From the IMG/VR virus record IMGVR_UViG_3300045988_002998: DNA of 42,273 bases. The stretch is one strand, 5' to 3'. Below, in pieces: positions 1,366 to 23,675 of this stretch. Source of the stretch: a virus. Numbering within the stretch: the first letter of the stretch is position 1; the number at the start of each line of letters is the position of its first letter. Both the position numbers and the translations under genes were made by a program. The notes under the pieces are model-generated. The model was not told the DNA's origin and did no database searches. It was given only the letters and a program-made list of their open reading frames with translations.

Positions 1366-3648
1366 ATGGCAGATGGGAAAATCGTTGTGCAGGCGGAAGT
1401 TGATGCAAAAAAAGCACAACGGGAGCTTGATAAACTTACGGCAAGAATCGACAAGCTGGAAACCGATTTGAAAAAGAGCAGTGGCGAGCAAAGCGGGATC
1501 AAGGCACAGCTTGACGCGGCAAAGGAATCCGCAAAACAGGCAGAAACTGCGTTGAAATCGTTGCGCGCTGAATCCGAGCGACTGCGGCAGGTCACATCCG
1601 GCGAGGTGGCTGCATCGCCTGATGCGTATATTTCTGCATACAGTCGGCAATCCGAAGTCGCTGCACAGATTAAGGAACAGGAAGCGCTTCTGAAAGAGCA
1701 AGACAAGATCGTTGAGAGCTTGGACGGCAAGTACGCAAAAATTACGGACAAGGTAATGGAGCAGACCTCCGCGCTGGACGCGGCGAAGACACGCGCAGGA
1801 GAGCTTACGCAAGAGATTACAAATGCAAGCGGCGCGTCCGAACGAATGGAGCTTGCCGCAAAAAAAGTTTCCGACAGCATGAACACGTTCAGCAAGCGTG
1901 TTTCCGGGCTTTTTAAGCGGGTCCTTGTATTCTCTCTGATTACTAGAGCGCTGCAAAGCCTGCGGACATGGCTCGGGAAAACAATCATGCAGAACGAGGA
2001 GGCGCGTGCAGCGGTTGCGCGGCTTAAGGCGGCGTTTTTGACGCTGGCTCAGCCGATTCTTCAAGTCGTGATTCCCGTTTTCGTGAAGCTTGTGGACATT
2101 CTGACGCAGGTTGTTACAGCTATCGCAAAGTTCTTCGGAATGCTGTCCGGCAAAAGCTGGGGCGCGCAGGTCGCAGCGGCAAAAGGGCTGAATGCGGAAA
2201 AAGAAGCAATCGAGGGGGTAGGCTCCGCAGCTGAAGACGCCAGCAAGAGCATGGCGAGCTTCGACGAGATCAACCAGATTACCAGCAATCAGGCATCTGG
2301 AGGCGGTGGCGGCGCAGGCGGGGCGGCGTCTACGGATATCGCGCCGGATTTCTCAAACCTCGACATGGCGGAGGATAAACTGCACGATATTCTCGGCCTA
2401 GTAGGTGCGATTGCAGCCGGGCTGCTCGCTTGGAAAATTGCGAGCTTGTTCACGAACGACCTGAGCAAGATTTGGGGTATCGCCCTTGCTGTTGCCGGTG
2501 CGTTTGCGCTTGTATACTTCTGGCTGGATGCTTGGAATAATGGGATTGATTTACAAAACTTCCTCGGGATGCTGGCAGGTCTTGCCGCGCTTGCAGTTGG
2601 GCTTGCAATCGCCTTCGGACCAATCGCAGCAGGAATTGCGCTTGTTGTAGGCGGTCTTGCCATGCTGGTTGTCGGTATCAAAGACGTTATCGAAAACGGC
2701 TTTAATTTGGTGAATACGCTTACGATCATCGCAGGGCTGCTTGCCGCTGGTATCGGAATTTCGCTTCTGACGGGCAGCTGGATTCCACTCCTGATTGCGG
2801 GATTTGTTGCCGCTCTGGTTGCACTTGTTTCCTTTACCGGACATGGCGAAGAACTAATCGAAGGCCTGAAAAATATCATAGACGGATTCGGGAAATTCTT
2901 CAAGGGTGTGTTTACGGGAGACTTAAAGCTTGCAGCAGAAGGCGCGAAACAAATTTGGGAAGGGCTTAAGCAGACGTGGAATGCCATCATAAACTCCATC
3001 AAATATGCATGGGATATGTTCATTGCATGGTTACAATCAAAAAGCCCCATGCTCGCGGCGATTTTCCAGACATACGGAAACTTTATATCCGGCCTCTTCA
3101 ACAGTATAAAGCAGTGGCTAAGCGGAATCATCGAGTTTATCAGCGGCGTTTTTACCGGAGACTGGACAAAGGCGTGGGAAGGCGTAAAGGATATATTTAA
3201 GGGAATCTGGAATGGAATCATTACCGCTGTTGAATATGCGATAAACTTTATCATCAACGGTATAAACCTCCTAATCTCCGCGCTGAATACCATTCATTTC
3301 GAGGTCCCTGATTGGGTTCCTCTAATTGGCGGTAGTTCTTTCGGAATTAGCATTCCCCTAGTGAGCAACGTTGCGCTGCCTCGTCTCGCGCAGGGCGCAG
3401 TCATTCCCCCGAACCGCGAATTTCTCGCCGTTCTCGGTGACCAGAAGAGCGGGACGAATATTGAGACGCCGCTGGCAACGATGGTGCAGGCCTTTAAGCA
3501 GGCCATGAACGATACCGGAGGCATGGGCGGCAGGCAGATCACGGTTGTTATGCAGCTCGACCACAGAGAACTTGGCCGCGCGGTGTATAACCTTAACAAC
3601 GAGGAAACACAGCGCGTCGGCGTAAAGCTTGCGGGGGTGAAGGCATGA
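1366..3648 (+). CDS. Tape measure protein
   Basis: 760 aa, the largest ORF. N-terminal coiled coil (KKAQRELDKLTARIDKLETDLKK), long Gly/Ala/Leu/Ile-rich hydrophobic core. Position between chaperones and baseplate genes. Confidence 0.9.
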   Translation: MADGKIVVQAEVDAKKAQRELDKLTARIDKLETDLKKSSGEQSGIKAQLDAAKESAKQAETALKSLRAESERLRQVTSGEVAASPDAYISAYSRQSEVAAQIKEQEALLKEQDKIVESLDGKYAKITDKVMEQTSALDAAKTRAGELTQEITNASGASERMELAAKKVSDSMNTFSKRVSGLFKRVLVFSLITRALQSLRTWLGKTIMQNEEARAAVARLKAAFLTLAQPILQVVIPVFVKLVDILTQVVTAIAKFFGMLSGKSWGAQVAAAKGLNAEKEAIEGVGSAAEDASKSMASFDEINQITSNQASGGGGGAGGAASTDIAPDFSNLDMAEDKLHDILGLVGAIAAGLLAWKIASLFTNDLSKIWGIALAVAGAFALVYFWLDAWNNGIDLQNFLGMLAGLAALAVGLAIAFGPIAAGIALVVGGLAMLVVGIKDVIENGFNLVNTLTIIAGLLAAGIGISLLTGSWIPLLIAGFVAALVALVSFTGHGEELIEGLKNIIDGFGKFFKGVFTGDLKLAAEGAKQIWEGLKQTWNAIINSIKYAWDMFIAWLQSKSPMLAAIFQTYGNFISGLFNSIKQWLSGIIEFISGVFTGDWTKAWEGVKDIFKGIWNGIITAVEYAINFIINGINLLISALNTIHFEVPDWVPLIGGSSFGISIPLVSNVALPRLAQGAVIPPNREFLAVLGDQKSGTNIETPLATMVQAFKQAMNDTGGMGGRQITVVMQLDHRELGRAVYNLNNEETQRVGVKLAGVKA

Positions 3649-4037: not shown

Positions 4038-5497
4038 GTGTAAAAGTTGTTTACGAGGACGTCGCAGTCGGCGCAGCTGACGCCGCGACCGTTGCGAGCA
4101 GCGACGCAAATGCATTTTCCATCATCCAAGATCTGCCGCACGGAACAAACCAGCTGTTAATCGAAACGAACGAGCTGAACCAGTGGATATTGGACGGCTC
4201 CCGGAAGATCCGCACGGCGGAGACTGCGGCGTTCTGGTCGGCGGAGCAGAGCAAGGCGGACTGCACCTTCGATACAAACCCGACGATTACTGTCACGCTG
4301 GACGGTGTATTCGCGTCCTCCGGCATCTTCTTTAACTTCGACGGCGGAGCAGGCGATTATTGCAGTGAGCTGACGCTCACGTGGTATAACGGTAATACGG
4401 TTGCGGCGACGCAGCAGTTCACGCCGGACGCGCAGAAATACTTCTGTGCAAAGCCTGTATCGGCATATAGCAAGCTGGTAATTGAGATTACGAAGACAAG
4501 TTTGCCGTACCGGTACGCGAAGATTCGCCAGATCTTTTTTGGCATCGTTCGCGAGTTTGAACGGGCGGATCTGCGAAGCGTCAGTGTGACGGAGGGTATC
4601 AGCGTGATCTCGGACGACGTTGAAATCAACACGCTTGATTTCACGCTAGACGATTCCGATGATATCGAATTTATTTTCCAAGAGAAGCAGCCAGTAAGTG
4701 CCTATGACGGAAGCAATCTGATCGGCGTGTTTTACATCAAGAGTTCGTCCCGGTCGAGCGCTCGCCTGTACGACGTTTCGTGCCATGATGCGCTCGGCGT
4801 CCTCGACGACGAGCCGTTTTCCGCTGCAATCTACAGCGGCAAGAACGCAAAGGATCTGATCACAAGCATTCTCGGCGGGCACTTTTTGCTCGATATGGAC
4901 GAGCGCCTGCAGGCCGAGACCGTCACAGGCTATATTCCGGACTGCACCTCTCGCGAAGCCTTGCAGCAGATCGCGTTTGCGCTCTGTGCAACTGTAGATA
5001 CAAGCGGCAGCCGTGGGATCTGCGTGCGTAAGTTGCCTACGGATACGGCAACAGAGATCCCACTTGACCGGCTCTATACGGGCGGAAGTGTAGATACCTC
5101 CGCGATTGTGACAGAGGTGCGCATCACGGCGCACAGCTATTCCACGTCTGGCAGTGGCGACAGCGTGACTGTTGGCGGCAAGACTTACTACCACACGACA
5201 GCAGTCACGGCAAAAACCAATCCGGACGTCACCACCAGCACAAAACCGAACGTCATTGAGGTCAAGGACGCGACGCTGGTAAACCCCAGCAACGTCGCCA
5301 CCGTGGCGCAGCACGTCTACGACTATTACATGCGCCGCCAGACGCACAGCGTGAAGATTGTTATGAAAGGCGAAGTTCCGGGCGATTACGTCGAGACCAC
5401 AACGCCGTGGGGGACGAAGATCACCGGCACGATCACCAGCATGAACATCCGATTGAGCGGGATTGCAGCAGCAGATTCCGAAATCGTAGGCGTATAA
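4034..5497 (+). CDS. Tail-associated / baseplate hub protein (Tal-like)
   Basis: 487 aa; translationally coupled (ATGA) to the upstream gene; position after TMP/Dit. Confidence 0.5.
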   Translation: MSVKVVYEDVAVGAADAATVASSDANAFSIIQDLPHGTNQLLIETNELNQWILDGSRKIRTAETAAFWSAEQSKADCTFDTNPTITVTLDGVFASSGIFFNFDGGAGDYCSELTLTWYNGNTVAATQQFTPDAQKYFCAKPVSAYSKLVIEITKTSLPYRYAKIRQIFFGIVREFERADLRSVSVTEGISVISDDVEINTLDFTLDDSDDIEFIFQEKQPVSAYDGSNLIGVFYIKSSSRSSARLYDVSCHDALGVLDDEPFSAAIYSGKNAKDLITSILGGHFLLDMDERLQAETVTGYIPDCTSREALQQIAFALCATVDTSGSRGICVRKLPTDTATEIPLDRLYTGGSVDTSAIVTEVRITAHSYSTSGSGDSVTVGGKTYYHTTAVTAKTNPDVTTSTKPNVIEVKDATLVNPSNVATVAQHVYDYYMRRQTHSVKIVMKGEVPGDYVETTTPWGTKITGTITSMNIRLSGIAAADSEIVGV

Positions 5498-5508
5498 AGG
5501 AGAAACAA

Positions 5509-7392
5509 GTGTTTACAGTTTTATGTAAAAAAGCGTGCGCGGAAACCGGATGCCACAGGCCGCTGCTGACAGCAGGCATGGCAAATGCGGAAACAATTGA
5601 ATTTAATTTCAGCGCCGACTGGGACACCCTCACCAAAACCGCCGTCTTTACCGACGGCAAAGTCACAGTCGACGTCTTACAGTCGCGCTGGCTCACGGGG
5701 AATACCGTCAACATCCCCGCCGAAGTCCTCGCTACGGCCGGCCGGAGTGTCCGCGTCGGCGTCTACGGCGCGAACGCGGACGGGCTGATATTGCCGACAG
5801 TGTGGGTAACGCTCGGCAAAGTCATGCCGGCGGCAGAGCCGTCCGGAGATCCGGGGGCAGACCCGACGCTGCCGATCTGGGCGCAGCTGCAAAACCAGAT
5901 CGGCGATCTGGACGATCTCACCACCAAAGCCAAAAACAATCTCGTCGCCGCGATCAACGAAGCGGCGAAAACCGGCAGCGGCGGCGCTGGCTCCATCGAT
6001 CTGCGCACCGCAGACGGCTACATCCAGTATTCCAACGACGGCGGCGCGACGTGGGAAAACCTGATCGCCCTCGCTGACCTCAAAGGCGAGAAGGGCGACA
6101 CCGGCGCAACTGGCCCGCAGGGGCAGCAGGGGCCAGCGGGGAAGACGCCGGTCAAGGGGACGGACTATTTTACGGAAGCCGACAAGCAGGAGATCGCGGA
6201 AGACGCGGCTGCGATGGTCGATCTGAGCGGGAAGCAGGACAAGATCAAGGCGAGCGGCCTGCTGAAGGGCGACGGCGCGGGCGGTGTCGAGACAGCGATG
6301 CCCGGCACGGATTATCTGATGGAAGCACCCGTCACGTCTGTCAACGGCGCGACCGGCGCAGTGAAAGGCACATTTTATGTGACAGTGACGCAAGGACACA
6401 ATGCTAGCGTAACCGCCGACAAAACGGCTGAGGAAGTGTATGCAGCCTATGTGGCAGGGTATGCGGTGTATGCAATTGTAAAATTCGCAGGAGCTATAGT
6501 ACCATACACACTTCCACTTCTGGCTGCGGCAAGTGTTTCCGGGACGGTAGTGCTCGGATTTGCAACGGTTGGATCAAGCAATGAGAATGACAACCCACAG
6601 TTTTTGATCGTGCTATACAACGGGGCCGCTTGGTCGGCATGGATCGACACGCTGGCAAGAAGCAGGGATATCCCAAAGATTCCGACGGAACTCAAAAATC
6701 CCTATTCACTCGTCATCAAAATCGGGAACGAGATGACGTCCTACGATGGAAGCGCGGCGAAAACAGTGGAAATCCCGGAGGGCGGCGGTACGGACGAATC
6801 GCTCGGTATTACCGGCGCTTCGGCTGGGAAAATCCCAAAAATCAAGGCGGTTGATGCGGCCGGAAAGCCAACGCAGTGGGAGGCAACGGCACTTCCAGAT
6901 GAAGCGTTTATTGTACACTTCACACTAGAGCGTCCACTCGTAGGGAACCCCACTATTACATCAGACAGAACACTAGAAGAGGTTACTGCCGCGATAGCGG
7001 CCAAAAAACAAGTCATAGCATTATTAGACGAAAACAATACAATAATTCAACTTTACAGCATTGCCAGTTCTATTAACTACCTGTATTTTTACACCATAAA
7101 AAAACAGGGAGCTGTAGTCGGAATAGGATGGCAGATTGATATTGACATGGAGGGTGGAAAAACCTCTACATTAACGACTATGGCCCCTTGGAATTTTATA
7201 GGATACAATGGCGTATCAGGTTCCAATCAAATCTTTGGCACAGGAGATACTGGTGGTTATGAATTTAAGCAACACATTCTGTTTGATAATCTGCCAGAAG
7301 TCACTACCTCCGACAACGGCAAATTCATGCGTGTGGTCAACGGCGCATGGGCGGTGGAAACGGTCGAGAATGCGAATGGAGGTAGCTTCTGA
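5509..7392 (+). CDS. Tail fibre protein with collagen-like stretch
   Basis: The track ORF opens at 5407, but AAGGAG (5498..5503) sits 5 nt before GTG 5509, right after the upstream stop. Contains GEKGDTGATGPQGQQGPAGKT. Confidence 0.65.
   Translation: MFTVLCKKACAETGCHRPLLTAGMANAETIEFNFSADWDTLTKTAVFTDGKVTVDVLQSRWLTGNTVNIPAEVLATAGRSVRVGVYGANADGLILPTVWVTLGKVMPAAEPSGDPGADPTLPIWAQLQNQIGDLDDLTTKAKNNLVAAINEAAKTGSGGAGSIDLRTADGYIQYSNDGGATWENLIALADLKGEKGDTGATGPQGQQGPAGKTPVKGTDYFTEADKQEIAEDAAAMVDLSGKQDKIKASGLLKGDGAGGVETAMPGTDYLMEAPVTSVNGATGAVKGTFYVTVTQGHNASVTADKTAEEVYAAYVAGYAVYAIVKFAGAIVPYTLPLLAAASVSGTVVLGFATVGSSNENDNPQFLIVLYNGAAWSAWIDTLARSRDIPKIPTELKNPYSLVIKIGNEMTSYDGSAAKTVEIPEGGGTDESLGITGASAGKIPKIKAVDAAGKPTQWEATALPDEAFIVHFTLERPLVGNPTITSDRTLEEVTAAIAAKKQVIALLDENNTIIQLYSIASSINYLYFYTIKKQGAVVGIGWQIDIDMEGGKTSTLTTMAPWNFIGYNGVSGSNQIFGTGDTGGYEFKQHILFDNLPEVTTSDNGKFMRVVNGAWAVETVENANGGSF
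6085..6147 (+). repeat. Collagen-like Gly-X-Y x7 coding repeat inside the fibre gene
   Basis: ggc gag aag ggc gac acc ggc gca act ggc ccg cag ggg cag cag ggg cca gcg ggg aag acg, read in frame. Confidence 0.85.
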
Positions 7393-9323
7393 TGGCTGAA
7401 TATCTGACAAACACGGCTGACCTGACGGCGGTTGCCGACGCGATCCGCGCGAAGGGCGGCACGGATGCGCAGCTGGTGTATCCGTCCGGGTTTGTGTCGG
7501 CCATTCAGGCAATCGAGACTGATGCTGTGGAAGCCTTGGAATGGCACCAATGCCCAGAGCTGGTGCGGAACTACCTCGCAAATGTGGTGTACGATCCTGC
7601 TGATTACAGCACATCGCAGATCGCATCCTATGCACCTGCGATGGCAGTTGTGAGCAATTACAAGCCCATCGGGCAGGAGGCGGGCGGTGTGACGCACTAC
7701 AACGAGGAGCCGTCCGCCCTCACGCCCTTTGCCGGAACGGACGCGGCGGGAACGCTCAAGCCGCTGGATGCGCTGCGGTGGATTCGCACGCGGAACAATT
7801 CCGCAGAAGCGTGGAATGTGCGCGATCTGGGAGGCTGGGCCTGCGATGGCGGAACAGTAAAATACGGGCTGCTGATTCGAGGCGGGCGTATCGCCGCTGC
7901 AGATCGGAATGTTCTAGTAGGCGAGCTAGGCGTGCAGCATGAGATCGATCTCAGAGGCAAAGAGGGCCGCGATCCGTCCGACGGTGACGTTGCAACAGAA
8001 TCCCCGCTTGGCAGCGATGTGTGGTTTACGATTGCTGATAAAGCAGCGTCCTACGCACTGGCGCCGGTTGCAACGTGGCAGCTCTATCTTCGCTGCGTGA
8101 TCGACGCAGTGACACACCGGGATCCGGTGTATTTTCATTGCACTGCAGGAGCTGATCGCACAGGCACACTTGCATGTGTGCTGGAAGGGATACTCGGCAT
8201 GAGCCAGAGCGATATCGATAAGGACTATGAGCTTACTACATTTTATTCCGGTTCGGGAACGGATGCACTCGCGCGGCGGAGAAATGAACCAGAGTGGACT
8301 GGACTTATCAATGCCATTAAGGCCGTTTCCGGCGAAACGTTCCGTGACAAATGCGTTCACTTCGCAGTTGGCGCATGCGGAATGACAATGGCGGACATCA
8401 ACGCCTACCGAGCGGCTATGACAAACGGAACGCCCGAGACGCTGCACTGGTATCAGACGATCACCAAAAATCTCACAGGATGCACGATAAGCAACGCCGC
8501 GTCCAAGGTGGATTACGGCGAGGCGTACACCGCGACACTCACACCGGAAAACGGAAAGACGCTGACCTCCGTTGTGATAAAAATGGGCGGCGTGGACATT
8601 ACATCCACGGCTTATTCGGCCGGCAGCGGTGCAATCAACATTGCCAAGGTAACGGGGGCAATTACGATCACTGCGGCGGCATCTGCACTGTCTGTGACTT
8701 ACACCATCACGCGGAATCTCACCAATTGCGCATCGTCCAACACGGCGAATACCATTGCCGAGGGTGCGGCCTACATCACGACGCTCTCGCCGACCGGTAC
8801 ATATAAAAAGCTCGGCGCGATCACTGTTACGATGGGCGGTACGGACATCTCCGCTTCGGCGGTTTCCGGCAGCACGATCACAATTGCCAACGTAACGGGT
8901 AACATTGTGATTACCTGCGCGGCGACGATCACGAACATCATCGATACAGTCGGAATTTCCGAAAATACGCGCTTGAGTGCAGCGAGTGGTGCCAATAAAG
9001 CGCAGACGGGGCATGCGGCTATCGGTGCGAACATGGACGCATCGAGCCTGATTCACCTGCACGCGGGAGATACGCTCCGCATCAAGGGTGTAAGCCTCCC
9101 CGCTGCAAATGACGGGACAAGTGTGGCAGTGAGGTACAGTGCAACGGCAACGTTTTTATCCGCGGGCTACATGCACAACGGGTATACGTGGAGTGAACTC
9201 AATTTTACAAGCAGCGGAGATATCGTCACGGTAACGTCAAATGCTGAACAGTACATCCGTTTGTCGCCGATCTGCACGGATGCGTCGGCGGTAATTGCGA
9301 CGATCAATGAGGAGATCGGCTGA
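7392..9323 (+). CDS. Tail fibre / receptor-binding protein with internal PTP-like (CX5R) phosphatase domain and two Ig-like repeats
   Basis: 643 aa. Fibre-type N-terminus (TADLTAVADAIRAKGGTDA). NVRDLGGW...EIDLRG and HCTAGADRTGT (8136..8165) match the Y_phosphatase3/PTP signature. Two ~77-aa repeats (approx 8457..8690 and 8700..8926). ATGA-type coupling on both sides. Confidence 0.65.
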   Translation: MAEYLTNTADLTAVADAIRAKGGTDAQLVYPSGFVSAIQAIETDAVEALEWHQCPELVRNYLANVVYDPADYSTSQIASYAPAMAVVSNYKPIGQEAGGVTHYNEEPSALTPFAGTDAAGTLKPLDALRWIRTRNNSAEAWNVRDLGGWACDGGTVKYGLLIRGGRIAAADRNVLVGELGVQHEIDLRGKEGRDPSDGDVATESPLGSDVWFTIADKAASYALAPVATWQLYLRCVIDAVTHRDPVYFHCTAGADRTGTLACVLEGILGMSQSDIDKDYELTTFYSGSGTDALARRRNEPEWTGLINAIKAVSGETFRDKCVHFAVGACGMTMADINAYRAAMTNGTPETLHWYQTITKNLTGCTISNAASKVDYGEAYTATLTPENGKTLTSVVIKMGGVDITSTAYSAGSGAINIAKVTGAITITAAASALSVTYTITRNLTNCASSNTANTIAEGAAYITTLSPTGTYKKLGAITVTMGGTDISASAVSGSTITIANVTGNIVITCAATITNIIDTVGISENTRLSAASGANKAQTGHAAIGANMDASSLIHLHAGDTLRIKGVSLPAANDGTSVAVRYSATATFLSAGYMHNGYTWSELNFTSSGDIVTVTSNAEQYIRLSPICTDASAVIATINEEIG

Positions 9324-9817: not shown

Positions 9818-11280
9818 AAGACAGACAACCGACACAGGTGCTGGCCAACGGCGCGATCCGATACGGCATTTACGGCGCCGACGGAACGCTCGACCACTAC
9901 GAATACATGAAGCGCGAGGACGAGCCTACAATCGAAGGTACGCCGCTCAATAAGGCAAATCTTTTATCCGACGTGACGGAGAATAAGATCTGGAACAACA
10001 AGGAGAAACCGGCTGATCCGACCGTCAACGATGCGCTGTACGAGTTATCTAAAGGCACGGCGCGTATCGGAGACATCTCCATGACTGCCCGCGGGGATCG
10101 CTCAACTTCGTGGCTCCCCTGCGATGGACGGGCAATTTCAAACGTCGAGTATCCGGATCTGTACAACGTCCTGCGCACGGACGTCGATGCGGGTGATTGG
10201 GATGAAATCGAAGTCACTGGCCTGAGCGGCACGCATCCATCCTTGTCGTATGTAAACGGACACTGGTTCTGCGTTGCGCAAAAAAGCGACAAAAGCCTAA
10301 ACATTGCAGTTTCAAGCGATTTCTCCTCGTTCGCAATAAGATCCATGTCCGTTGCGACGACATGGAATAATTCGCTTGGCTCTTATTCCCTGCTCAACAT
10401 TCTCGGCACAACACCCGTACATTATTATGCCGGTAAGTATCTGTTTGCTGCTTTTTATCTATGCTCAAAAGGCAACGGCTACGGATATGCGACGTTTATC
10501 GTATACTCGGACACACCGGCAGGAACGTGGCGCCTTTCTCCAGTCCAAGTACATACAGGACATGACAGGACGAAAGAGCACTATATCTCCGATCTGCTCA
10601 TCTACGATGGGATTTACTACATACCGGAGCCACGCCAAGATGGGATCCCAGACACCGGCACTTATTATTGGGCAACGGATATTCAAGGCCAGTGGACGAG
10701 GAAGCCGACCGCCTATGGCTTTGAGGCAAGAAACACACAGTCAAAAAACTATGGAGCTATTTACTCGGATGTTGGCAACTATGAGGTTTATAAATTCCAG
10801 GGGCTAAACGACGGGTATGTAGCAAGCTCTACCTATCCGGGCGGAACAATTGGATCTGCGATAAATCTTGCAGCAGCCGGGGACACAGTTATTTTAATCT
10901 GCGAAAAGGGTGCTGCGTATTCGTTGGATGGCGGAGAGACTTTTACTTCGGCAGCTACATTTGGGAGCGAATTTCCGACGGAACTAACGCACAATATAGC
11001 CATTTACGATGGAAATATCTGTGCCACTTTTCTAAAAAACGGAACAGAAAAATTTATTGCAGTAACAAGTGCCCCTGATTTTGCGTTCGCGATCAAGCCG
11101 GTCAACTATGAAATCGGATGGTTCGCGAATAATGGCAATACAGTTTCCGCAATTGTTGATAACTCCGAGGACGTACAAGTTAAACTCCTCACAAGAGATT
11201 TTTCGTACTCTGCAAAACGTATCCCCAAAATCACCCCCGATGGCCGCAGTTATGCTTACATCAAAGCGCTGGAGGAATAA
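9814..11280 (+). CDS. Receptor-binding / tail fibre protein with tail-collar-like motif
   Basis: AGGAGGA precedes ATG 9814 (ATGA overlap with the upstream stop; track ORF starts earlier at 9793). The motif WLPCDGRAISNVEYPDLYNVL resembles the phage tail collar domain. Confidence 0.55.
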   Translation: MKDRQPTQVLANGAIRYGIYGADGTLDHYEYMKREDEPTIEGTPLNKANLLSDVTENKIWNNKEKPADPTVNDALYELSKGTARIGDISMTARGDRSTSWLPCDGRAISNVEYPDLYNVLRTDVDAGDWDEIEVTGLSGTHPSLSYVNGHWFCVAQKSDKSLNIAVSSDFSSFAIRSMSVATTWNNSLGSYSLLNILGTTPVHYYAGKYLFAAFYLCSKGNGYGYATFIVYSDTPAGTWRLSPVQVHTGHDRTKEHYISDLLIYDGIYYIPEPRQDGIPDTGTYYWATDIQGQWTRKPTAYGFEARNTQSKNYGAIYSDVGNYEVYKFQGLNDGYVASSTYPGGTIGSAINLAAAGDTVILICEKGAAYSLDGGETFTSAATFGSEFPTELTHNIAIYDGNICATFLKNGTEKFIAVTSAPDFAFAIKPVNYEIGWFANNGNTVSAIVDNSEDVQVKLLTRDFSYSAKRIPKITPDGRSYAYIKALEE

Positions 11281-14726: not shown

Positions 14727-15064
14727 AACTCACGCCCGCAATCCGCGCTGCTCTCTACGCCGAGACCGGCGCATACACTGACCGCGACGCCTATATCTCG
14801 GATCTGGCACTATCAAGCATCTGGGGCGACGCTGAAGACGCCGAGATCCCAGCGGAACGGCTTGCACTGCTCTGCGCGGTCTGGGACGGCGCGCACTGCA
14901 CAGCCCCGGAGCTTCTTAAAAAATACGGACTGTCACAGACCGGCTTTGCACAGTATTTTAACGTCCCCCTGCGCACCGTGCAGGGCTGGTGCCTCGGTGA
15001 GCGCGCATGCCCGCCGTATGTGATCGCGATGGCCGCGGAAATCTTAGCCATGAACGATCGATAA
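14723..15064 (+). CDS. HTH protein, paralogue of the C-terminal domain of gene B (island gene C)
   Basis: 113 aa; FAQYFNVPLRTVQGWCLGERACPPYVIAMAAEIL aligns with the C-terminus of 14016..14726; ATGA overlap. Confidence 0.55.
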   Translation: MKLTPAIRAALYAETGAYTDRDAYISDLALSSIWGDAEDAEIPAERLALLCAVWDGAHCTAPELLKKYGLSQTGFAQYFNVPLRTVQGWCLGERACPPYVIAMAAEILAMNDR

Positions 15065-18633: not shown

Positions 18634-19752
18634 CTAGATCGCGTTTATGATTTTCTTCAAGTCTTCCAGATTCACGTCTTGGTAGTACCGGAGCATCTCA
18701 GGGCTTGCGTGGCCGATCAATTTCATTTTATCCTTGTCAGGCGCAACAACTTTTTTCATCAATGTCGCGAATGTGTGCCTGCATGTATGCGGCGAATATT
18801 TGTGGATTCCGTTTACCATTGGGTTTTCAATGCCGACGGCTTCTAGTGTGGGGTAAAAAACAGCGTCCCGGAATCTATCATAGGAAAATTGGTTACCTTT
18901 TTCATCGCAGAACAACGCGCCGGACGCTTTTCCGTCGTAAAGACGATCAATAATGGGCTGGATCTTCGGGCTGATGGGAACGACACGATTTTTTCCAGCC
19001 TCCGTTTTCGCACCACCGGTCAGCGTTTTTTTATTCGCATCGTAGCTGTCAACGCTCAGGGCCAGCAGTTCTGACGGTCTGAAGCCGAGATAGCACATTG
19101 CATAAATATAATCCGTGAACGGAATCACGCCGACAGCGTCTCGTATTCTTTCAATCTGTTCTTGCGTAAAGCTTTCCCTCGCCGCTCCGAACTCTCCGCT
19201 GACAATCAGATATTGCCCTAAATTCAGTTCTGCGTAGCCGCGTGGAACTGCGTACTTGTACATAAGCCCTGCTAACGCTTTCATGTTTTCTTTTGTTCTT
19301 CTTCCTCTCGGGCATTCGTCCATGCATTCCTGCAAATCATCTATTTCTATATCTTCCAGTTTCCAGAACTCAACTTGATAAAAGTATTTTTCGGCTGATT
19401 TGTAGCAATCAATTGTGGATTTCCCAGCTCTGTGAGTGGGGAGCCACATTTCGTAGAGTTCACGCCATGTAATTGCTTTTTCGCGCTTCTTCTGCCCGGC
19501 CAACATCGGCAGGTAGTCAAGCGCTTCTTTTTTTGTGCGGAATCCGCATTTCCGAGCAACAACGCGCTTTACAGATCCGTTTTCTTCTCGGTATCCCTTT
19601 GTTATTTCCGCTACCCATTTATCGTTGCGCCGGTATACCGAGCCCGTGCCGTTCCCGCGTTTTGTGGCCTTTTTTGTTTGCTGTTTTTTCCCGCACCAGC
19701 AACAGTAGGGCGCGCCGTCTGGAATTTCCTTTTTACACTTGATGCACTCCAT
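18634..19752 (-). CDS. int: Tyrosine integrase with N-terminal zinc ribbon
   Basis: MECIKCKKEIPDGAPYCCWCGKK; catalytic-type motifs GFRPSELLAL, HTCRHTFATLM, LIGHASPEMLRYYQDV. GGAGGG precedes ATG 19752 (track start 19764 is a GTG inside the SD). Confidence 0.9.
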   Translation of the reverse strand: MECIKCKKEIPDGAPYCCWCGKKQQTKKATKRGNGTGSVYRRNDKWVAEITKGYREENGSVKRVVARKCGFRTKKEALDYLPMLAGQKKREKAITWRELYEMWLPTHRAGKSTIDCYKSAEKYFYQVEFWKLEDIEIDDLQECMDECPRGRRTKENMKALAGLMYKYAVPRGYAELNLGQYLIVSGEFGAARESFTQEQIERIRDAVGVIPFTDYIYAMCYLGFRPSELLALSVDSYDANKKTLTGGAKTEAGKNRVVPISPKIQPIIDRLYDGKASGALFCDEKGNQFSYDRFRDAVFYPTLEAVGIENPMVNGIHKYSPHTCRHTFATLMKKVVAPDKDKMKLIGHASPEMLRYYQDVNLEDLKKIINAI

Positions 19753-20308
19753 GTTTCCCTCCACGTTCTTTTCGGATCGCGTAGAAAGTAATTGCCGAAG
19801 CCAGAACCGAACCTACGATCAGGGCGATACACGCCCATGCGGTTACGGTCAAATCTCCATCGCGAATGAGGCCTGCGTTCCGAATCTGCGCATCCGTCAC
19901 AAGGCAAGCAACCAGGGAAAAGGAGAGCAGCAAACAAAATAGGGCGAGAACGTAACACATTGTATGTGTAGACCTTATCTGCGCGCTCTGTAGGGCTGTT
20001 GCTGCCTCCAGCTTGGCGTTTTCAAGCTCGACATGATGGATCTGCTTGGTCAGCTTTTCCGGGCTTCCGACGGGATTTTCAAGGCCGAACAGCTCGTCGA
20101 GCGACAGACCAAGCGTTTTACATATTGCGGCCGAGTTATAAAGCCGTGGATCCGCTTGTGTTCCAGCATATAATCGGCTCACGGTGGAGAAGGAAACGCC
20201 GGACTTTTCCGACAGCTCCTCCAGCGTCATTCCGCTGTGATCTTTCGCATTTCTGATTTTCCCATGATACGCGCCGATAAACGGCGCGAGTTCCTGTATC
20301 GCGGACAT
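19733..20308 (-). CDS. XRE-family HTH regulator with C-terminal double transmembrane anchor
   Basis: 191 aa; GGAGGAG RBS. HTH MTLEELSEKSGVSFSTVSRLYAG, coiled linker, then CYVLALFCLLLSFSLVACLV and WACIALIVGSVLASAITFYAI. The 3' end overlaps the int start by 20 nt. Confidence 0.65.
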   Translation of the reverse strand: MSAIQELAPFIGAYHGKIRNAKDHSGMTLEELSEKSGVSFSTVSRLYAGTQADPRLYNSAAICKTLGLSLDELFGLENPVGSPEKLTKQIHHVELENAKLEAATALQSAQIRSTHTMCYVLALFCLLLSFSLVACLVTDAQIRNAGLIRDGDLTVTAWACIALIVGSVLASAITFYAIRKERGGKHGVHQV

Positions 20309-21794: not shown

Positions 21795-21953
21795 ATGGTT
21801 GAAAATTTACAGGAAGTATGCGACAATGATACCAAGAAAACAAACGTTCGCGAGGAATTAAAAGCTGCCGTTTTGTCGCTTACAGACGAACAGGCCGTGT
21901 ATGTGTTAAGGAGGATGCAATGCTGTTTGCAAGAAAAGAAATCGAACGACTGA
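21795..21953 (+). CDS. Small hypothetical ORF (52 aa, below the track threshold)
   Basis: ATAGGAG 6 nt before ATG 21795; MVENLQEVCDNDTKKTNVREELKAAVLSLTDEQAVYVLRRM...; stop TGA 21951..21953. Confidence 0.3.
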   Translation: MVENLQEVCDNDTKKTNVREELKAAVLSLTDEQAVYVLRRMQCCLQEKKSND

Positions 21954-22225
21954 GAGAAGAAAATCGCGATCTGAGATCGCAGCTTTCACAAGAGAAGGAG
22001 AAAACGCGCCGGTCTGCATTTATAGAAACAGCGAACCTCCCGGAATGCAAAAGCCTGGCCTGCGTCGGATGCGAACATATTGTTGTGCAGGTTACTCCGC
22101 ACGGTGGATACTTTGTTGTAGGCTGCGGAAAAAATAACCCATGTGGGGATTACGTCAAGTCCAATGCCCCTGAAGCGCAGAAACAGGCTATCCGACAAGT
22201 GCTGCAATCGCAATGGCAGTTGTGA
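21920..22225 (+). CDS. Hypothetical Cys-containing protein
   Basis: 101 aa; AAGGAGG RBS; N-terminal coiled segment, then CKSLACVGCEH...GCGKNNPCGDY. Confidence 0.45.
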   Translation: MLFARKEIERLREENRDLRSQLSQEKEKTRRSAFIETANLPECKSLACVGCEHIVVQVTPHGGYFVVGCGKNNPCGDYVKSNAPEAQKQAIRQVLQSQWQL

Positions 22226-22511
22226 TCGCGTAAGGAAGCCAAAAGGCCCAAAAGTCTTTTCGTTTCTGCTCGATATAGTCCCTGCCGTATAATGTGATTC
22301 TGATTCGGTCTTCGGAGTTAACCGTTCCGCCCGCTCCGTCTGGCTCCCCGCCGATTGAAAATTCCTCAATGAGTTTATCAAGCTTAAGATAGGTTACATA
22401 TTTGTTCAGCCGATTCTTTTCTGTGTGAGAAGTGAACGCGTTTACCTCATCTACACTCATTGAATCGGTTCGATACAGTTTTTTCAGGAGTTTATACGCG
22501 GTCTTTTCCAT
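22188..22511 (-). CDS. Hypothetical protein with C-terminal TM, co-oriented with the repressor
   Basis: 107 aa; C-terminus FWAFWLPYAITTAIAIAALVG; starts 8 nt after the repressor stop. Confidence 0.45.
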   Translation of the reverse strand: MEKTAYKLLKKLYRTDSMSVDEVNAFTSHTEKNRLNKYVTYLKLDKLIEEFSIGGEPDGAGGTVNSEDRIRITLYGRDYIEQKRKDFWAFWLPYAITTAIAIAALVG

Positions 22512-22518
22512 AAATCCT

Positions 22519-22848
22519 TCACATCAGCTTCAGCGCTTCAGCAATAAACCCGGCAAGCTTTCTGCACTGCTCGTCAGAAAGCCCATCGATCATATCAAGC
22601 AGCTGCTGTTTTTCCTGGCTCACCGCCCCATCCTTCGGGATGGGGCCTTTTTTTATGCCTTTGCCCATCAGTTCTTCTACTGTTACGCCGAAGTAGTCGG
22701 CGATTTTTTGCGCATTTACGTCAGAGGGTTTTGTCTTCCGCGCTTTCCAACAGCTTATTGTTGACTTGTCGATTCCGAGTTCTCGGCCAACGTATGCAGG
22801 GGTTTTGTCTACAGAAGCGCAAAGCGCAACAAAGTTGTCATAAAACAC
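22519..22848 (-). CDS. CI-like XRE-family repressor
   Basis: 109 aa; GTG start with GAGGTG 7 nt upstream; HTH TPAYVGRELGIDKSTISCWKARK; divergent from the early operon. Confidence 0.75.
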   Translation of the reverse strand: MFYDNFVALCASVDKTPAYVGRELGIDKSTISCWKARKTKPSDVNAQKIADYFGVTVEELMGKGIKKGPIPKDGAVSQEKQQLLDMIDGLSDEQCRKLAGFIAEALKLM

Positions 22849-22884
22849 AATAATACACCTCTGGAACTGTTAAATACGACGAAA

Positions 22885-22901
22885 GTTGAATTAGTTTGCA
22901 A
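22885..22901. promoter_or_regulatory. Operator-like 17-mer O1
   Basis: GTTGAATTAGTTTGCAA; 15/17 identical to 22947..22963. Confidence 0.55.
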
Positions 22902-22908
22902 ATAGCGG

Positions 22909-22937
22909 TTGACAGTTGAGAATGTTTGATGTATTAT
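22909..22937 (+). promoter_or_regulatory. Early rightward promoter (PR-like)
   Basis: TTGACA (22909..22914), 17-nt spacer, TATTAT (22932..22937). Confidence 0.65.
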
Positions 22938-22946
22938 TGCCTTGTG

Positions 22947-22963
22947 GTTGAAAAAGTTTGCAA
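22947..22963. promoter_or_regulatory. Operator-like 17-mer O2
   Basis: GTTGAAAAAGTTTGCAA; starts 62 bp after O1; the two sites bracket the promoter. Confidence 0.55.
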
Positions 22964-23080
22964 CAGACAAGACCCAAGCAAATCAACGCTTGCGCCAATG
23001 CTAATGTGTTTCTCGCAAATTCATAGTAGCACAAACAGTAAACAATTTCAACAACAAATTTCAAAAGTTGACTGCGGCGT

Positions 23081-23114
23081 AAAGAAAAGCCGCCCGTGGT
23101 TCGTTCACGAGCGG
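23081..23114 (-). terminator. Rho-independent terminator (minus strand)
   Basis: Minus-strand RNA ccgcucgug-aacgaac-cacgggcgg (9 bp, one G-U) followed by CUUUUCUUU. Confidence 0.5.
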
Positions 23115-23321
23115 GTTTCCCCAGAGTTGTTTACCAGAACGCGCTGCATCGTCAGGCCCCAGCAGCACACCGGGGAACGGCTTACTTGCCTGCTGGTGGC
23201 ATACACCCTTTTTACGCGGTCGGTTCCGCTTGTATGCCTGCCTGACACTGGCGAACGCAAAACGAACTTACGCTTCTATGACGCGCCGCTCACTTTGGCA
23301 GTTCTGGCGCTGCCCCTTGCC

Positions 23322-23378
23322 CTAACGCATCACGCCGTTTCTTTGGTCTGGAACTGGCAAGTTCAAAAGTTTGGTCAT
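23322..23378 (-). CDS. 18-codon uORF / leader peptide candidate (MTKLLNLPVPDQRNGVMR)
   Basis: AGGAGG (23392..23387) is 8 nt upstream of ATG (23378..23376); stop TAG (23324..23322). Confidence 0.3.
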   Translation of the reverse strand: MTKLLNLPVPDQRNGVMR

Positions 23379-23417
23379 GAAAACCACCTCCTGAATTTAC
23401 CTAAAAGGGCTAATGGC

Positions 23418-23447
23418 AGTATAGCACGTCTGGGGCGTTGCAGTCAA
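23418..23447 (-). promoter_or_regulatory. Leftward promoter facing the repressor gene (PRE-like position)
   Basis: Minus strand reads TTGACT, 18 nt, TGcTATACT (extended -10). Confidence 0.5.
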
Positions 23448-23474
23448 CGATTTTAACAGAATGGAGGTGTGTAT

Positions 23475-23675
23475 ATGCCTGAAAAATGGACAGGCGTACT
23501 GATCGGGAAAATGCACAATGCGCGTGTTTCATACGACGATCTTGCCGCAGAGCTTGGACTTACAAAAGGCTATCTGTCCATGATTTTGAACGGGAAAAGA
23601 AATCCGCCGGGTGCGAGGAAGCGCTTGGAAGACGCGGTTAAGGCCGTGATCGAACGAAGAAAGGAGGAAAAATGA
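23475..23675 (+). CDS. Cro-like small HTH protein
   Basis: GGAGG 7 nt before ATG 23475; SYDDLAAELGLTKGYLSMILNGKRNP. Confidence 0.6.
   Translation: MPEKWTGVLIGKMHNARVSYDDLAAELGLTKGYLSMILNGKRNPPGARKRLEDAVKAVIERRKEEK

Follow-up and report, generated by a model that had tools for sequence, protein, structure and literature searches.

The window analysed here, a stretch of 42,273 nucleotides (nt) of viral DNA (IMG/VR record IMGVR_UViG_3300045988_002998), carries in the 626-nt gap (22849..23474) between its minus-strand repressor gene and its plus-strand cro-like gene an element which is, with near certainty, the gene for a FuFi-1 RNA. The full Rfam model of FuFi-1 (RF02986, positions 1-175) matches on the minus strand only, at 23329..23084, with 94.5 bits against a gathering score of 59.6 (E = 3e-19). 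This was the sole Rfam match in the whole window at gathering thresholds, and ARAGORN found neither tRNA nor transfer-messenger RNA (tmRNA) there. A preliminary description of the gap had seen a structured RNA but held that no described class matches it; that statement was wrong, because FuFi-1 had already been described (Weinberg et al. 2017, PMC5737381). Comparison across about 190 loci shows consistently that the predicted FuFi-1 gene lies between a cro-side early gene and a CI-type repressor gene and is aimed at the latter, hence it would lie inside, and antisense to, a lytic leader of ~500 nt.

Weinberg et al. list FuFi-1, an orphan motif, among four that are likely to have a 'sophisticated biochemical function'; a riboswitch role was judged improbable because FuFi-1 is rarely found in 5' untranslated regions, and self-cleavage was negative (PMC5737381). 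The host range given for the family is Firmicutes or Fusobacteria. In the literature searched, FuFi-1 is mentioned in no other paper and no role is assigned to it.

The sequence hallmarks of FuFi-1 are a P1 helix around a hairpin (loop AACCAnAAC) and the AAAG after it, a multi-helix junction with CAUAGAA and UGCA, and a linker of the form GGUAAACAA...UGGG. In the Rfam alignment the window copy has the corresponding segments GCAGCGCCAGAACUGCCAAAG, CAUAGAAG, UGCA and GGUAAACAACUCUGGGG, and the hallmark columns are invariant across 14 diverse members. The Rho-independent terminator expected at the 3' end of FuFi-1 is also present. Score, hallmarks, terminator and covariation, being all the membership features that gave a definite outcome, agree in placing the window copy within the family.

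The comparative set comprised 191 FuFi-1 loci from viral contigs and Clostridia genomes. A pattern for the 3' linker retrieved at least 119 IMG/VR viral contigs and a pattern for the small open reading frame (ORF) of the leader at least 120 further ones, while a 17-base pattern gave 101 matches in the genome collection, ~90 of them by chance and ~12 genuine. Every genuine genome copy comes from the Clostridia or Negativicutes (Faecousia, Ruminococcoides intestinihominis, Lachnospiraceae, Acutalibacteraceae, Eubacterium, Avilachnospira, Ructibacterium and Selenomonas). Of 15 diverse loci, 14 scored above the FuFi-1 threshold (60-131 bits), as did five further loci. No cultured or annotated phage with the element was found; the GenBank faecal phage MT835537.1, which is unannotated, carries it.

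Two genomes, the Candidatus Avilachnospira and Ructibacterium metagenome-assembled genomes, contain tandem FuFi-1 copies on the same strand ~390 nt apart (L376, 5278..5488 and 5671..5878; L407, 6979..7186 and 7369..7579), all above the Rfam threshold. Three other loci (L016, L041 and L101; for example L016 at about 2440..2582) retain only the 3' part of FuFi-1, namely some P4 insert, the linker and the terminator, fused to unrelated sequence, and look like recombination remnants.

The fold was assessed on an alignment of 20 minimal-form members and the window, using a supplied structure with two pseudoknots. Alignment of full-length members with MAFFT and RNAalifold was abandoned as variable inserts broke the alignment, and minimal forms and anchor-based counts were used instead. 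Standard pairs occupied 94.8% of cells compared with 76.9% in shuffles, none of 500 shuffles being as high, and sliding the 3' partner by 1-3 columns as a control left 36-41% of cells paired. Compensatory changes occurred in 36 of the 48 pairs. The paired segments of FuFi-1 hence covary, a point on which the preliminary description had made its proposal depend. Helix P2 alone was represented by 42 distinct arm pairs, 25 of them fully paired, and the minimum-energy fold of the whole transcript gave z = -2.7.

Both pseudoknots, neither of which appears in the Rfam structure line for FuFi-1, show the same behaviour. The loop of P3 and the loop of the terminator hairpin occur in 32 distinct covarying versions among 108 sequences; their complementary run is 7 nt long in 78 of the 108 (null mode 4), and 6 of the 7 base pairs of this kissing pair show compensatory change. 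The P1a loop and the linker pair in 98% of cells, with the covarying types CCAAA/UUUGG, CCAGA/UCUGG, CUAAA/UUUAG, CCAUU/AAUGG and CCACG/UGUGG. This covariation indicates that FuFi-1 is a compact RNA held by two pseudoknots. Furthermore, CAUAGAA, UGCA and GGUAAACAA are invariant and unpaired.

The intrinsic terminator of the window had been correctly described as a 9-bp stem followed by CUUUUCUUU. It coincides with the 3' hairpin of the FuFi-1 model (positions 141-175), its stem covaries, and because its loop pairs with the P3 loop it would be an integral part of the double-pseudoknot fold. Across the relatives these terminators are strong, with GC-rich stems of 9-13 bp and long U tracts. A conserved antiterminator was not found: the complementarity of terminator arms to their own upstream sequence was 6.7 compared with 6.5 for that of other members, and 6.6 compared with 6.3.

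Past the terminator, the first sizeable co-oriented ORF encodes a helix-turn-helix (HTH) protein of the HTH_3/Xre/CI type in 20 of the first set's 32 distinct proteins and in 38 of the 61 from the second set and genomes; these HTH proteins include 21 with Phage_CI_repr and 8 with Peptidase_S24. The counts are lower bounds because ORF calling was crude. Homologues of the window's repressor were found in 72 of the 191 loci, co-oriented with the RNA in all 72 and downstream of the terminator by a median of 233 nt; the distance from FuFi-1 to the repressor gene is 180-600 nt. Homologues of the cro-like gene occur in 67 of the 191 loci and are divergent and 5' of the RNA in 67/67; other divergent genes at this position encode small HTH proteins or antirepressors (ANT/Bro-N). 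Beyond the repressor and cro-like genes, no conserved protein partner was found near FuFi-1 in these loci, a YjcQ-like gene being present in 6/191.

Promoters, here consensus matches throughout, complete the layout. The gap of the window contains three promoter-like sites compared with 1.2 +/- 1.0 in shuffles, among them the rightward (11/12) and leftward (10/12 with TG) promoters that had been pointed out before. A same-strand promoter of at least 10/12 stands at a fixed distance 5' of FuFi-1 in 67 of 97 distinct loci and is visible in all representatives. In 61 of 120 distinct loci (79/120 at 10/12 or better) an opposing promoter of at least 11/12 is located 165-320 nt past the terminator, compared with 6 of 223 control windows placed elsewhere in the loci on either strand and scored at 11/12 or better. 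It reaches 12/12 in L001 and L010 and 11/12 in the window. Opposite-strand promoters of at least 10/12 were found in 0/97 loci inside the FuFi-1 core and in 2/97 within 400 nt on the cro side.

A promoter-like site usually separates the terminator from the co-oriented repressor gene, and in relatives a further same-strand promoter often follows 28-60 nt after the terminator. In the window the minus-strand site at 23051..23023 is likely to be the promoter of the repressor gene itself. The candidate lytic promoter faces two putative leftward promoters, at 23447..23418 and 23051..23023, and this convergent layout recurs in consensus scans of the relatives. The comparative data back the strand, the convergence and the leftward promoter aimed at the repressor as they were originally proposed. 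Three GTTGAAnnAGTTTGCAA-like repeats, two flanking the rightward promoter and one over the -35 element of the putative repressor promoter, are candidate operators, judged by their sequence and position.

The predicted transcript begins with a hairpin, P0, in front of the FuFi-1 core. Comparison of leaders gave the helices GGCAA/UUGCC, AGGAG/CUUUU and UGGUC/GACCA; RNAfold recovered P0 in most of 42 diverse leaders, and its outer helix covaries (GGGCAA/UUGCCC, GGGCAU/AUGCCC, GGUAG/CUGCC and GGCGAU/AUCGUC). The 5' arm contains a Shine-Dalgarno sequence (23392..23387), and the start codon of a small ORF (23378..23376) sits at the border of loop and stem. A competing pairing between GGUAA of the invariant linker and UUGCC of the P0 3' arm was considered and dropped, since UUGCC variants track the P0 5' arm and not the linker.

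The small ORF is kept in about 80 distinct relatives, with a well-spaced Shine-Dalgarno sequence and a stop after 11-25 codons; 77 of 82 distinct relatives start with UUG or AUG. Codons 2-8 of its conserved part (M-T-K/Q/N-L-L-x-L/M-P) form the P0 3' arm, and the rest of the peptide differs between relatives in both length and sequence. No synonymous variation occurs at the Thr and Leu codons. Because several of the conserved codons are fixed by the search pattern itself, information on them comes from the first set of loci, which was selected independently. Within the window's group there are 2 synonymous and about 5 non-synonymous changes. In L043, L079 and L065 the start position reads ACG in leaders that are otherwise near-identical or related, which argues against strict selection for initiation. 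The stop codon of the window (UAG, 23324..23322) overlaps the 5' arm of P1, but this is not a feature of the family because the small ORF ends more than 130 nt before P1 in many members. Codons and tails of the relatives revealed none of the frame conservation beyond the RNA structure that control by a leader peptide would predict. Of the upstream ORF proposed earlier, the AGGAGG, the 8-nt spacing and the 18 codons stand, but its status as an independent element does not, since its conserved codons are the covarying arm of P0. The arrangement of Shine-Dalgarno sequence, start and ORF is conserved, the conservation is explained at the RNA level, and the translation is putative.

One locus (L270, about 10630..10800, and 14744..14793) has the promoter/P0/small-ORF module (MTKLLNLPAL) without FuFi-1, immediately ahead of a protein gene similar to the YjcQ-like ORF of the window at 22188..22511; the module is therefore separable from FuFi-1. 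A fragment of tmRNA lies at the end of this locus and points to prophage integration at ssrA.

The three-way junction singled out in the preliminary description is present in the window and predicted by folding, but it belongs to an insert in a variable hairpin and not to the core. It expands the loop of P4 and is an insertion in the Rfam alignment. Minimum-energy folding reproduces it both in the whole transcript and in a 103-nt segment alone (z = -2.7). Members of about 160 nt have P4 in the minimal form GGUGAAAACC, and other lineages carry unrelated inserts. The window-type insert is known in 5 sequence variants only, with the junction predicted in 3 of the 5 and a single compensatory change (A-U to G-C) in one hairpin; in the L013/L074 lineage the closing stem has two wobble-compatible and two disruptive changes. 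The junction is thus a plausible peripheral domain, weakly supported because of the few variants, the weakened closing stem and its prediction in only 3/5. A search for more copies with the pattern GGCATACAN{18,36}TGTATGCC returned nearly all chance palindromes and no new variants. A type II hammerhead ribozyme (RF02276) was also rejected as an identity for the junction: it scored 21.4 bits against a threshold of 37, its alignment has many non-standard pairs, and its stems conflict with the predicted junction.

In members with minimal P4 the small ORF is separated from P1 by an additional domain of ~130 nt (L009, about 8005..8160; L006, about 5210..5320, minus strand). The short motif CACGUAAAC / GCGUAAAAA is found repeatedly in this domain or in P4 inserts (L065, L236 and L375); its version in the window junction is CCGCGUAAAAAGGG, and it may represent a peripheral module that can move.

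As a whole, the window represents the complete genome of a temperate tailed phage, with tape measure, integrase, repressor, terminase, portal and minor head protein genes. All features that had been listed for the gap are present, at positions right to within 1-2 nt, including the G+C-rich core (G+C of 0.55-0.61 over about 23100-23350 compared with 0.35-0.40 over 22850-23050). PHROG labels the product of 22519..22848 a transcriptional regulator / repressor. Coordinates are collected in Table 1.

Table 1. Matched, predicted and candidate features of the FuFi-1 locus and its surroundings in the window
Feature	Position	Strand	Details
FuFi-1 core (RF02986)	23084..23329	-	Rfam match
P1	23329..23323 with 23292..23287	-	
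P1a	23313..23310 with 23301..23298	-	
P2	23286..23281 with 23144..23139	-	
P3	23273..23255	-	
P4	23254..23149	-	followed by linker GGUAAACAACUCUGGGG, then terminator
P3 loop	23267..23261	-	GUUCGUU; predicted kissing pair with terminator loop AACGAAC, 23105..23099
P1a loop	23307..23303	-	CCAGA; predicted pseudoknot with linker UCUGG, 23125..23121
Intrinsic terminator	23081..23114	-	9-bp stem 23114..23090, 7-nt loop, then CUUUUCUUU
Three-way-junction expansion in P4 loop	23151..23246	-	insertion in Rfam alignment
Junction closing stem (predicted)	23246..23240 with 23157..23151	-	
Junction hairpin arms (predicted)	23238..23231 with 23205..23198; 23196..23190 with 23165..23159	-	
P0 5' hairpin	23356..23401	-	outer GGUAA/UUGCC, middle UUCAGGAG/CUUUUGAA, inner UGGUU/GACCA
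18-codon ORF	23378..23322	-	MTKLLNLPVPDQRNGVMR; AGGAGG 23392..23387, 8 nt, ATG 23378
FuFi-1 promoter (consensus match)	23447..23418	-	TTGACT-18-TGcTATACT; 10/12 matches, extended -10; predicted start ~23411
Candidate early lytic promoter	22909..22937	+	TTGACA-17-TATTAT; 11/12 matches
Candidate repressor promoter	23051..23023	-	TTGAAA-17-TGnTACTAT; 9/12 matches, with TG
Operator-like repeats	22885..22901, 22947..22963		GTTGAAnnAGTTTGCAA; flank rightward promoter
Third operator-like copy, inverted	23040..23057		GTTGAAnnAGTTTGCAA-like; over -35 of repressor promoter
CI/Xre-type repressor gene	22519..22848	-	109 aa; Pfam HTH_3 2e-7; weak Phage_CI_repr
cro-like small HTH gene	23475..23675	+	66 aa; first in rightward operon; Pfam HTH_3 5e-6
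Integrase gene	18634..19764	-	

Two plus-strand hairpins within the repressor gene resemble terminators. The stronger, at 22625..22646 and antisense inside the repressor coding sequence, reads GCCCCATCC-TTCG-GGATGGGGC and then CTTTTTTTAT, and the weaker is at 22686..22702; either could halt rightward transcription from the plus-strand gene at 21920..22225 short of the switch. On the plus strand, CACCUCC at 23385..23391, the complement of the FuFi-1 Shine-Dalgarno region, is also complementary to GGAGGUG of the cro-like gene (23461..23467), ~75 nt downstream. The long leader of the lytic transcript could hence occlude the cro ribosome-binding site in cis; the complementarity may be coincidence, as strong GGAGG sites are frequent in Firmicutes.

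A promoter of its own, a built-in terminator, no antiterminator and a place in the lytic leader together lead us to infer a stand-alone RNA of ~330 nt, running on the minus strand from about 23411 to 23081 and consisting of P0, the FuFi-1 core, the P4 expansion and the terminator. This agrees with the earlier picture of a leftward structured RNA with its own promoter and terminator, antisense to a long cro leader, which the comparative sequence data support. We propose that it is a terminated lysogeny-side small RNA which opposes the lytic promoter by convergent transcription and antisense pairing. The early lytic transcript would start beside the repressor gene and cross the whole FuFi-1 unit in antisense (~530 nt) before reaching the cro-like gene, and the lytic promoter would be faced by two lysogeny-side promoters. 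In a lysogen the repressor would shut the lytic promoter, and the FuFi-1 promoter would fire to give a stable, terminated and compactly folded RNA. Its transcription would collide with leaky lytic transcription, and the RNA, fully complementary to the lytic leader, would dampen cro-side expression and so stabilise lysogeny. Upon induction the much stronger lytic promoter would overrun the FuFi-1 promoter, which would make the two mutually exclusive. The most likely role of P0 would be to bring in a ribosome or 30S subunit, and so either to stabilise the transcript at its 5' end or to gate its folding; a functional peptide is less likely.

We give this mechanism only an even chance of being correct, because it leaves the invariant unpaired nucleotides and the conserved fold unexplained; these imply an extra conserved partner, be it a protein, a ligand or self-association. 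Antisense pairing and interference by themselves fail to account for conservation of sequence and tertiary structure across phages with different repressors. Several further observations weigh against the proposal. FuFi-1 is complementary to the leader and not to the cro ribosome-binding site, so an antisense effect would need RNase III, or effects on termination or stability. The promoters are consensus matches, and a strong opposing promoter is missing from 34-49% of loci in our crude scan. About 38% of the downstream ORFs picked had no HTH match, for which crude ORF calling may account, and the main text of Weinberg et al. reports no consistent gene association for FuFi-1 (PMC5737381).

Two alternatives would make a protein or peptide the product that matters. 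The plus strand of the gap holds an uninterrupted frame of 176 codons (22926..23456), and if it encoded a protein the RNA features would be incidental. We see virtually no chance of this: the frame has no Pfam match, its substitutions in close relatives are spread evenly over codon positions (for example 17/15/13) and not in a coding-type pattern, which the preliminary description had named as the observation to look for, and frameshifting indels and 1-7 in-frame stops interrupt it in L004, L074, L085, L054 and L072. The opposite strand of the same region is, moreover, the match to the RNA family. We therefore rejected this ORF as a gene and treat the frame as non-coding. The small ORF could instead be the functional unit, as a leader peptide stalling at LPVP or as a micro-protein, with FuFi-1 as its 3' regulatory region. 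Its ideally spaced Shine-Dalgarno sequence, the prevalence of UUG or AUG starts with stops after 11-25 codons, and the occurrence of leader and ORF before a protein gene in L270 without FuFi-1 would fit such a role. We nevertheless consider it very unlikely, given that codons 2-8 are an arm of the covarying P0 hairpin with no synonymous variation at Leu and Thr, that the C-terminal part is variable, that some variants start with ACG, and that non-synonymous changes outnumber synonymous ones in the window's group.

The remaining alternatives concern what the RNA does. It could act in cis, much as lambda PRE does, as an attenuator or riboswitch-like leader that sets read-through into the repressor gene in response to a ligand, a protein or translation of the upstream ORF while also being antisense to cro. 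The RNA is indeed always upstream of the repressor gene and co-oriented with it at 180-600 nt, its strongly conserved junction nucleotides are typical of ligand-binding RNAs, cobalamin riboswitches use a kissing contact between aptamer loop and regulatory hairpin, and the ORF stop in the window overlaps P1. The terminator arms, however, have no conserved alternative partner (6.7 vs 6.5 and 6.6 vs 6.3), the terminators are strong and the terminator loop is part of the fold, a separate promoter is common between terminator and repressor gene, and in many members the small ORF lies more than 130 nt from P1; a riboswitch was also judged improbable in the main text of Weinberg et al. (PMC5737381). 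An attenuator is hence a distinctly improbable reading, and the description of the element as an attenuator- or riboswitch-like leader is not supported. Alternatively, FuFi-1 could be a trans-acting structured RNA with a job unrelated to cro control, its place in the immunity region serving expression in the lysogen and shut-off in the lytic state. It might bind or sequester a host or phage factor, hinder superinfecting phages with the same module, or self-assemble through its loops. Such a role would suit a sequence and double-pseudoknot fold kept across phages with unrelated repressors and operators, the invariant single-stranded nucleotides, the tandem copies in two genomes, a variable loop pair that could confer specificity, and the listing of FuFi-1 under 'sophisticated biochemical function' in the main text of Weinberg et al. 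(PMC5737381). No conserved protein partner lies nearby (the YjcQ-like gene is in 6/191 loci), and placement inside the lytic leader and not beside the repressor suggests coupling to the switch, so we regard a role of this kind as rather unlikely.

A further reading, possible but still doubtful, would make FuFi-1 a riboregulator dedicated to the lysis-lysogeny switch of temperate phages that infect gut Clostridia. It would be a compact double-pseudoknot RNA, expressed within the lytic leader to the mutual exclusion of the lytic promoter; its invariant core would bind a cellular signal or factor, and P0, by binding ribosomes, would report translational status. If so, host physiology would enter the lysogeny decision through an RNA and not a protein. 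The fixed place between repressor and cro, the antisense relation to the lytic leader, and P0 and a terminator within a double-pseudoknot fold turn an orphan motif into a testable hypothesis on how abundant human-gut phages keep or leave lysogeny.

The analogies drawn in the preliminary description with lambda PRE and coliphage 186 are reasonable as descriptions of layout. In coliphage 186 (pR/pL) and P2 (Pe/Pc) lytic and lysogenic promoters stand face to face with transcriptional interference (PMC5001618). Compared by layout, the FuFi-1 locus likewise has a putative strong lytic promoter converging with lysogeny-side promoters, with overlapping transcripts and the repressor gene beyond the lytic promoter. 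It differs in having a second convergent unit 100-300 nt further along the lytic leader, which would make a terminated structured RNA and not a repressor mRNA.

Small RNAs of immunity regions that oppose lytic-side transcripts include lambda OOP, the PRE transcript, P22 sar, P1/P7 c4 and P4 CI RNA; they favour lysogeny or immunity and are simple hairpins of phage-specific sequence. FuFi-1 shares their location and, as proposed, their opposition to lytic-side transcripts. In contrast to them it has a conserved, pseudoknotted fold common to phages of different immunity, and it overlaps the leader only, with no ribosome-binding site or coding region.

Cobalamin riboswitches have kissing-loop expression platforms in which a core loop pairs with the loop of a 3' regulatory hairpin, and FuFi-1 resembles them in the pairing of a core loop with a 3' hairpin loop, but has no evident alternative structure, ligand or directly regulated downstream ORF. 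Among 5' stabilisers of Firmicutes are the STAB-SD element of cryIIIA, known from Bacillus, and ribosome stalling in the ermC leader. FuFi-1 similarly combines a strong Shine-Dalgarno sequence and a short ORF near the 5' end of an otherwise non-coding transcript; unlike in these cases, both the Shine-Dalgarno sequence and the start codon take part in the pairing of a conserved hairpin. That P0 is a STAB-SD-type 5' stabiliser or a folding gate is a guess from this analogy.

With the FuFi-1 family itself the window copy shares the helices, the invariant nucleotides, the 3' intrinsic terminator and relatives from Firmicutes, and it differs by the ~95-nt three-way-junction expansion of P4. Beyond the Rfam model and the main text of Weinberg et al. 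(PMC5737381) lie the putative promoter with the P0/Shine-Dalgarno/small-ORF leader, the two pseudoknots, the fixed place upstream of a CI-type repressor gene and the opposing lytic promoter. The placement between repressor and cro genes, the opposing promoter, the P0 leader and the two pseudoknots may add to what has been published on this RNA.

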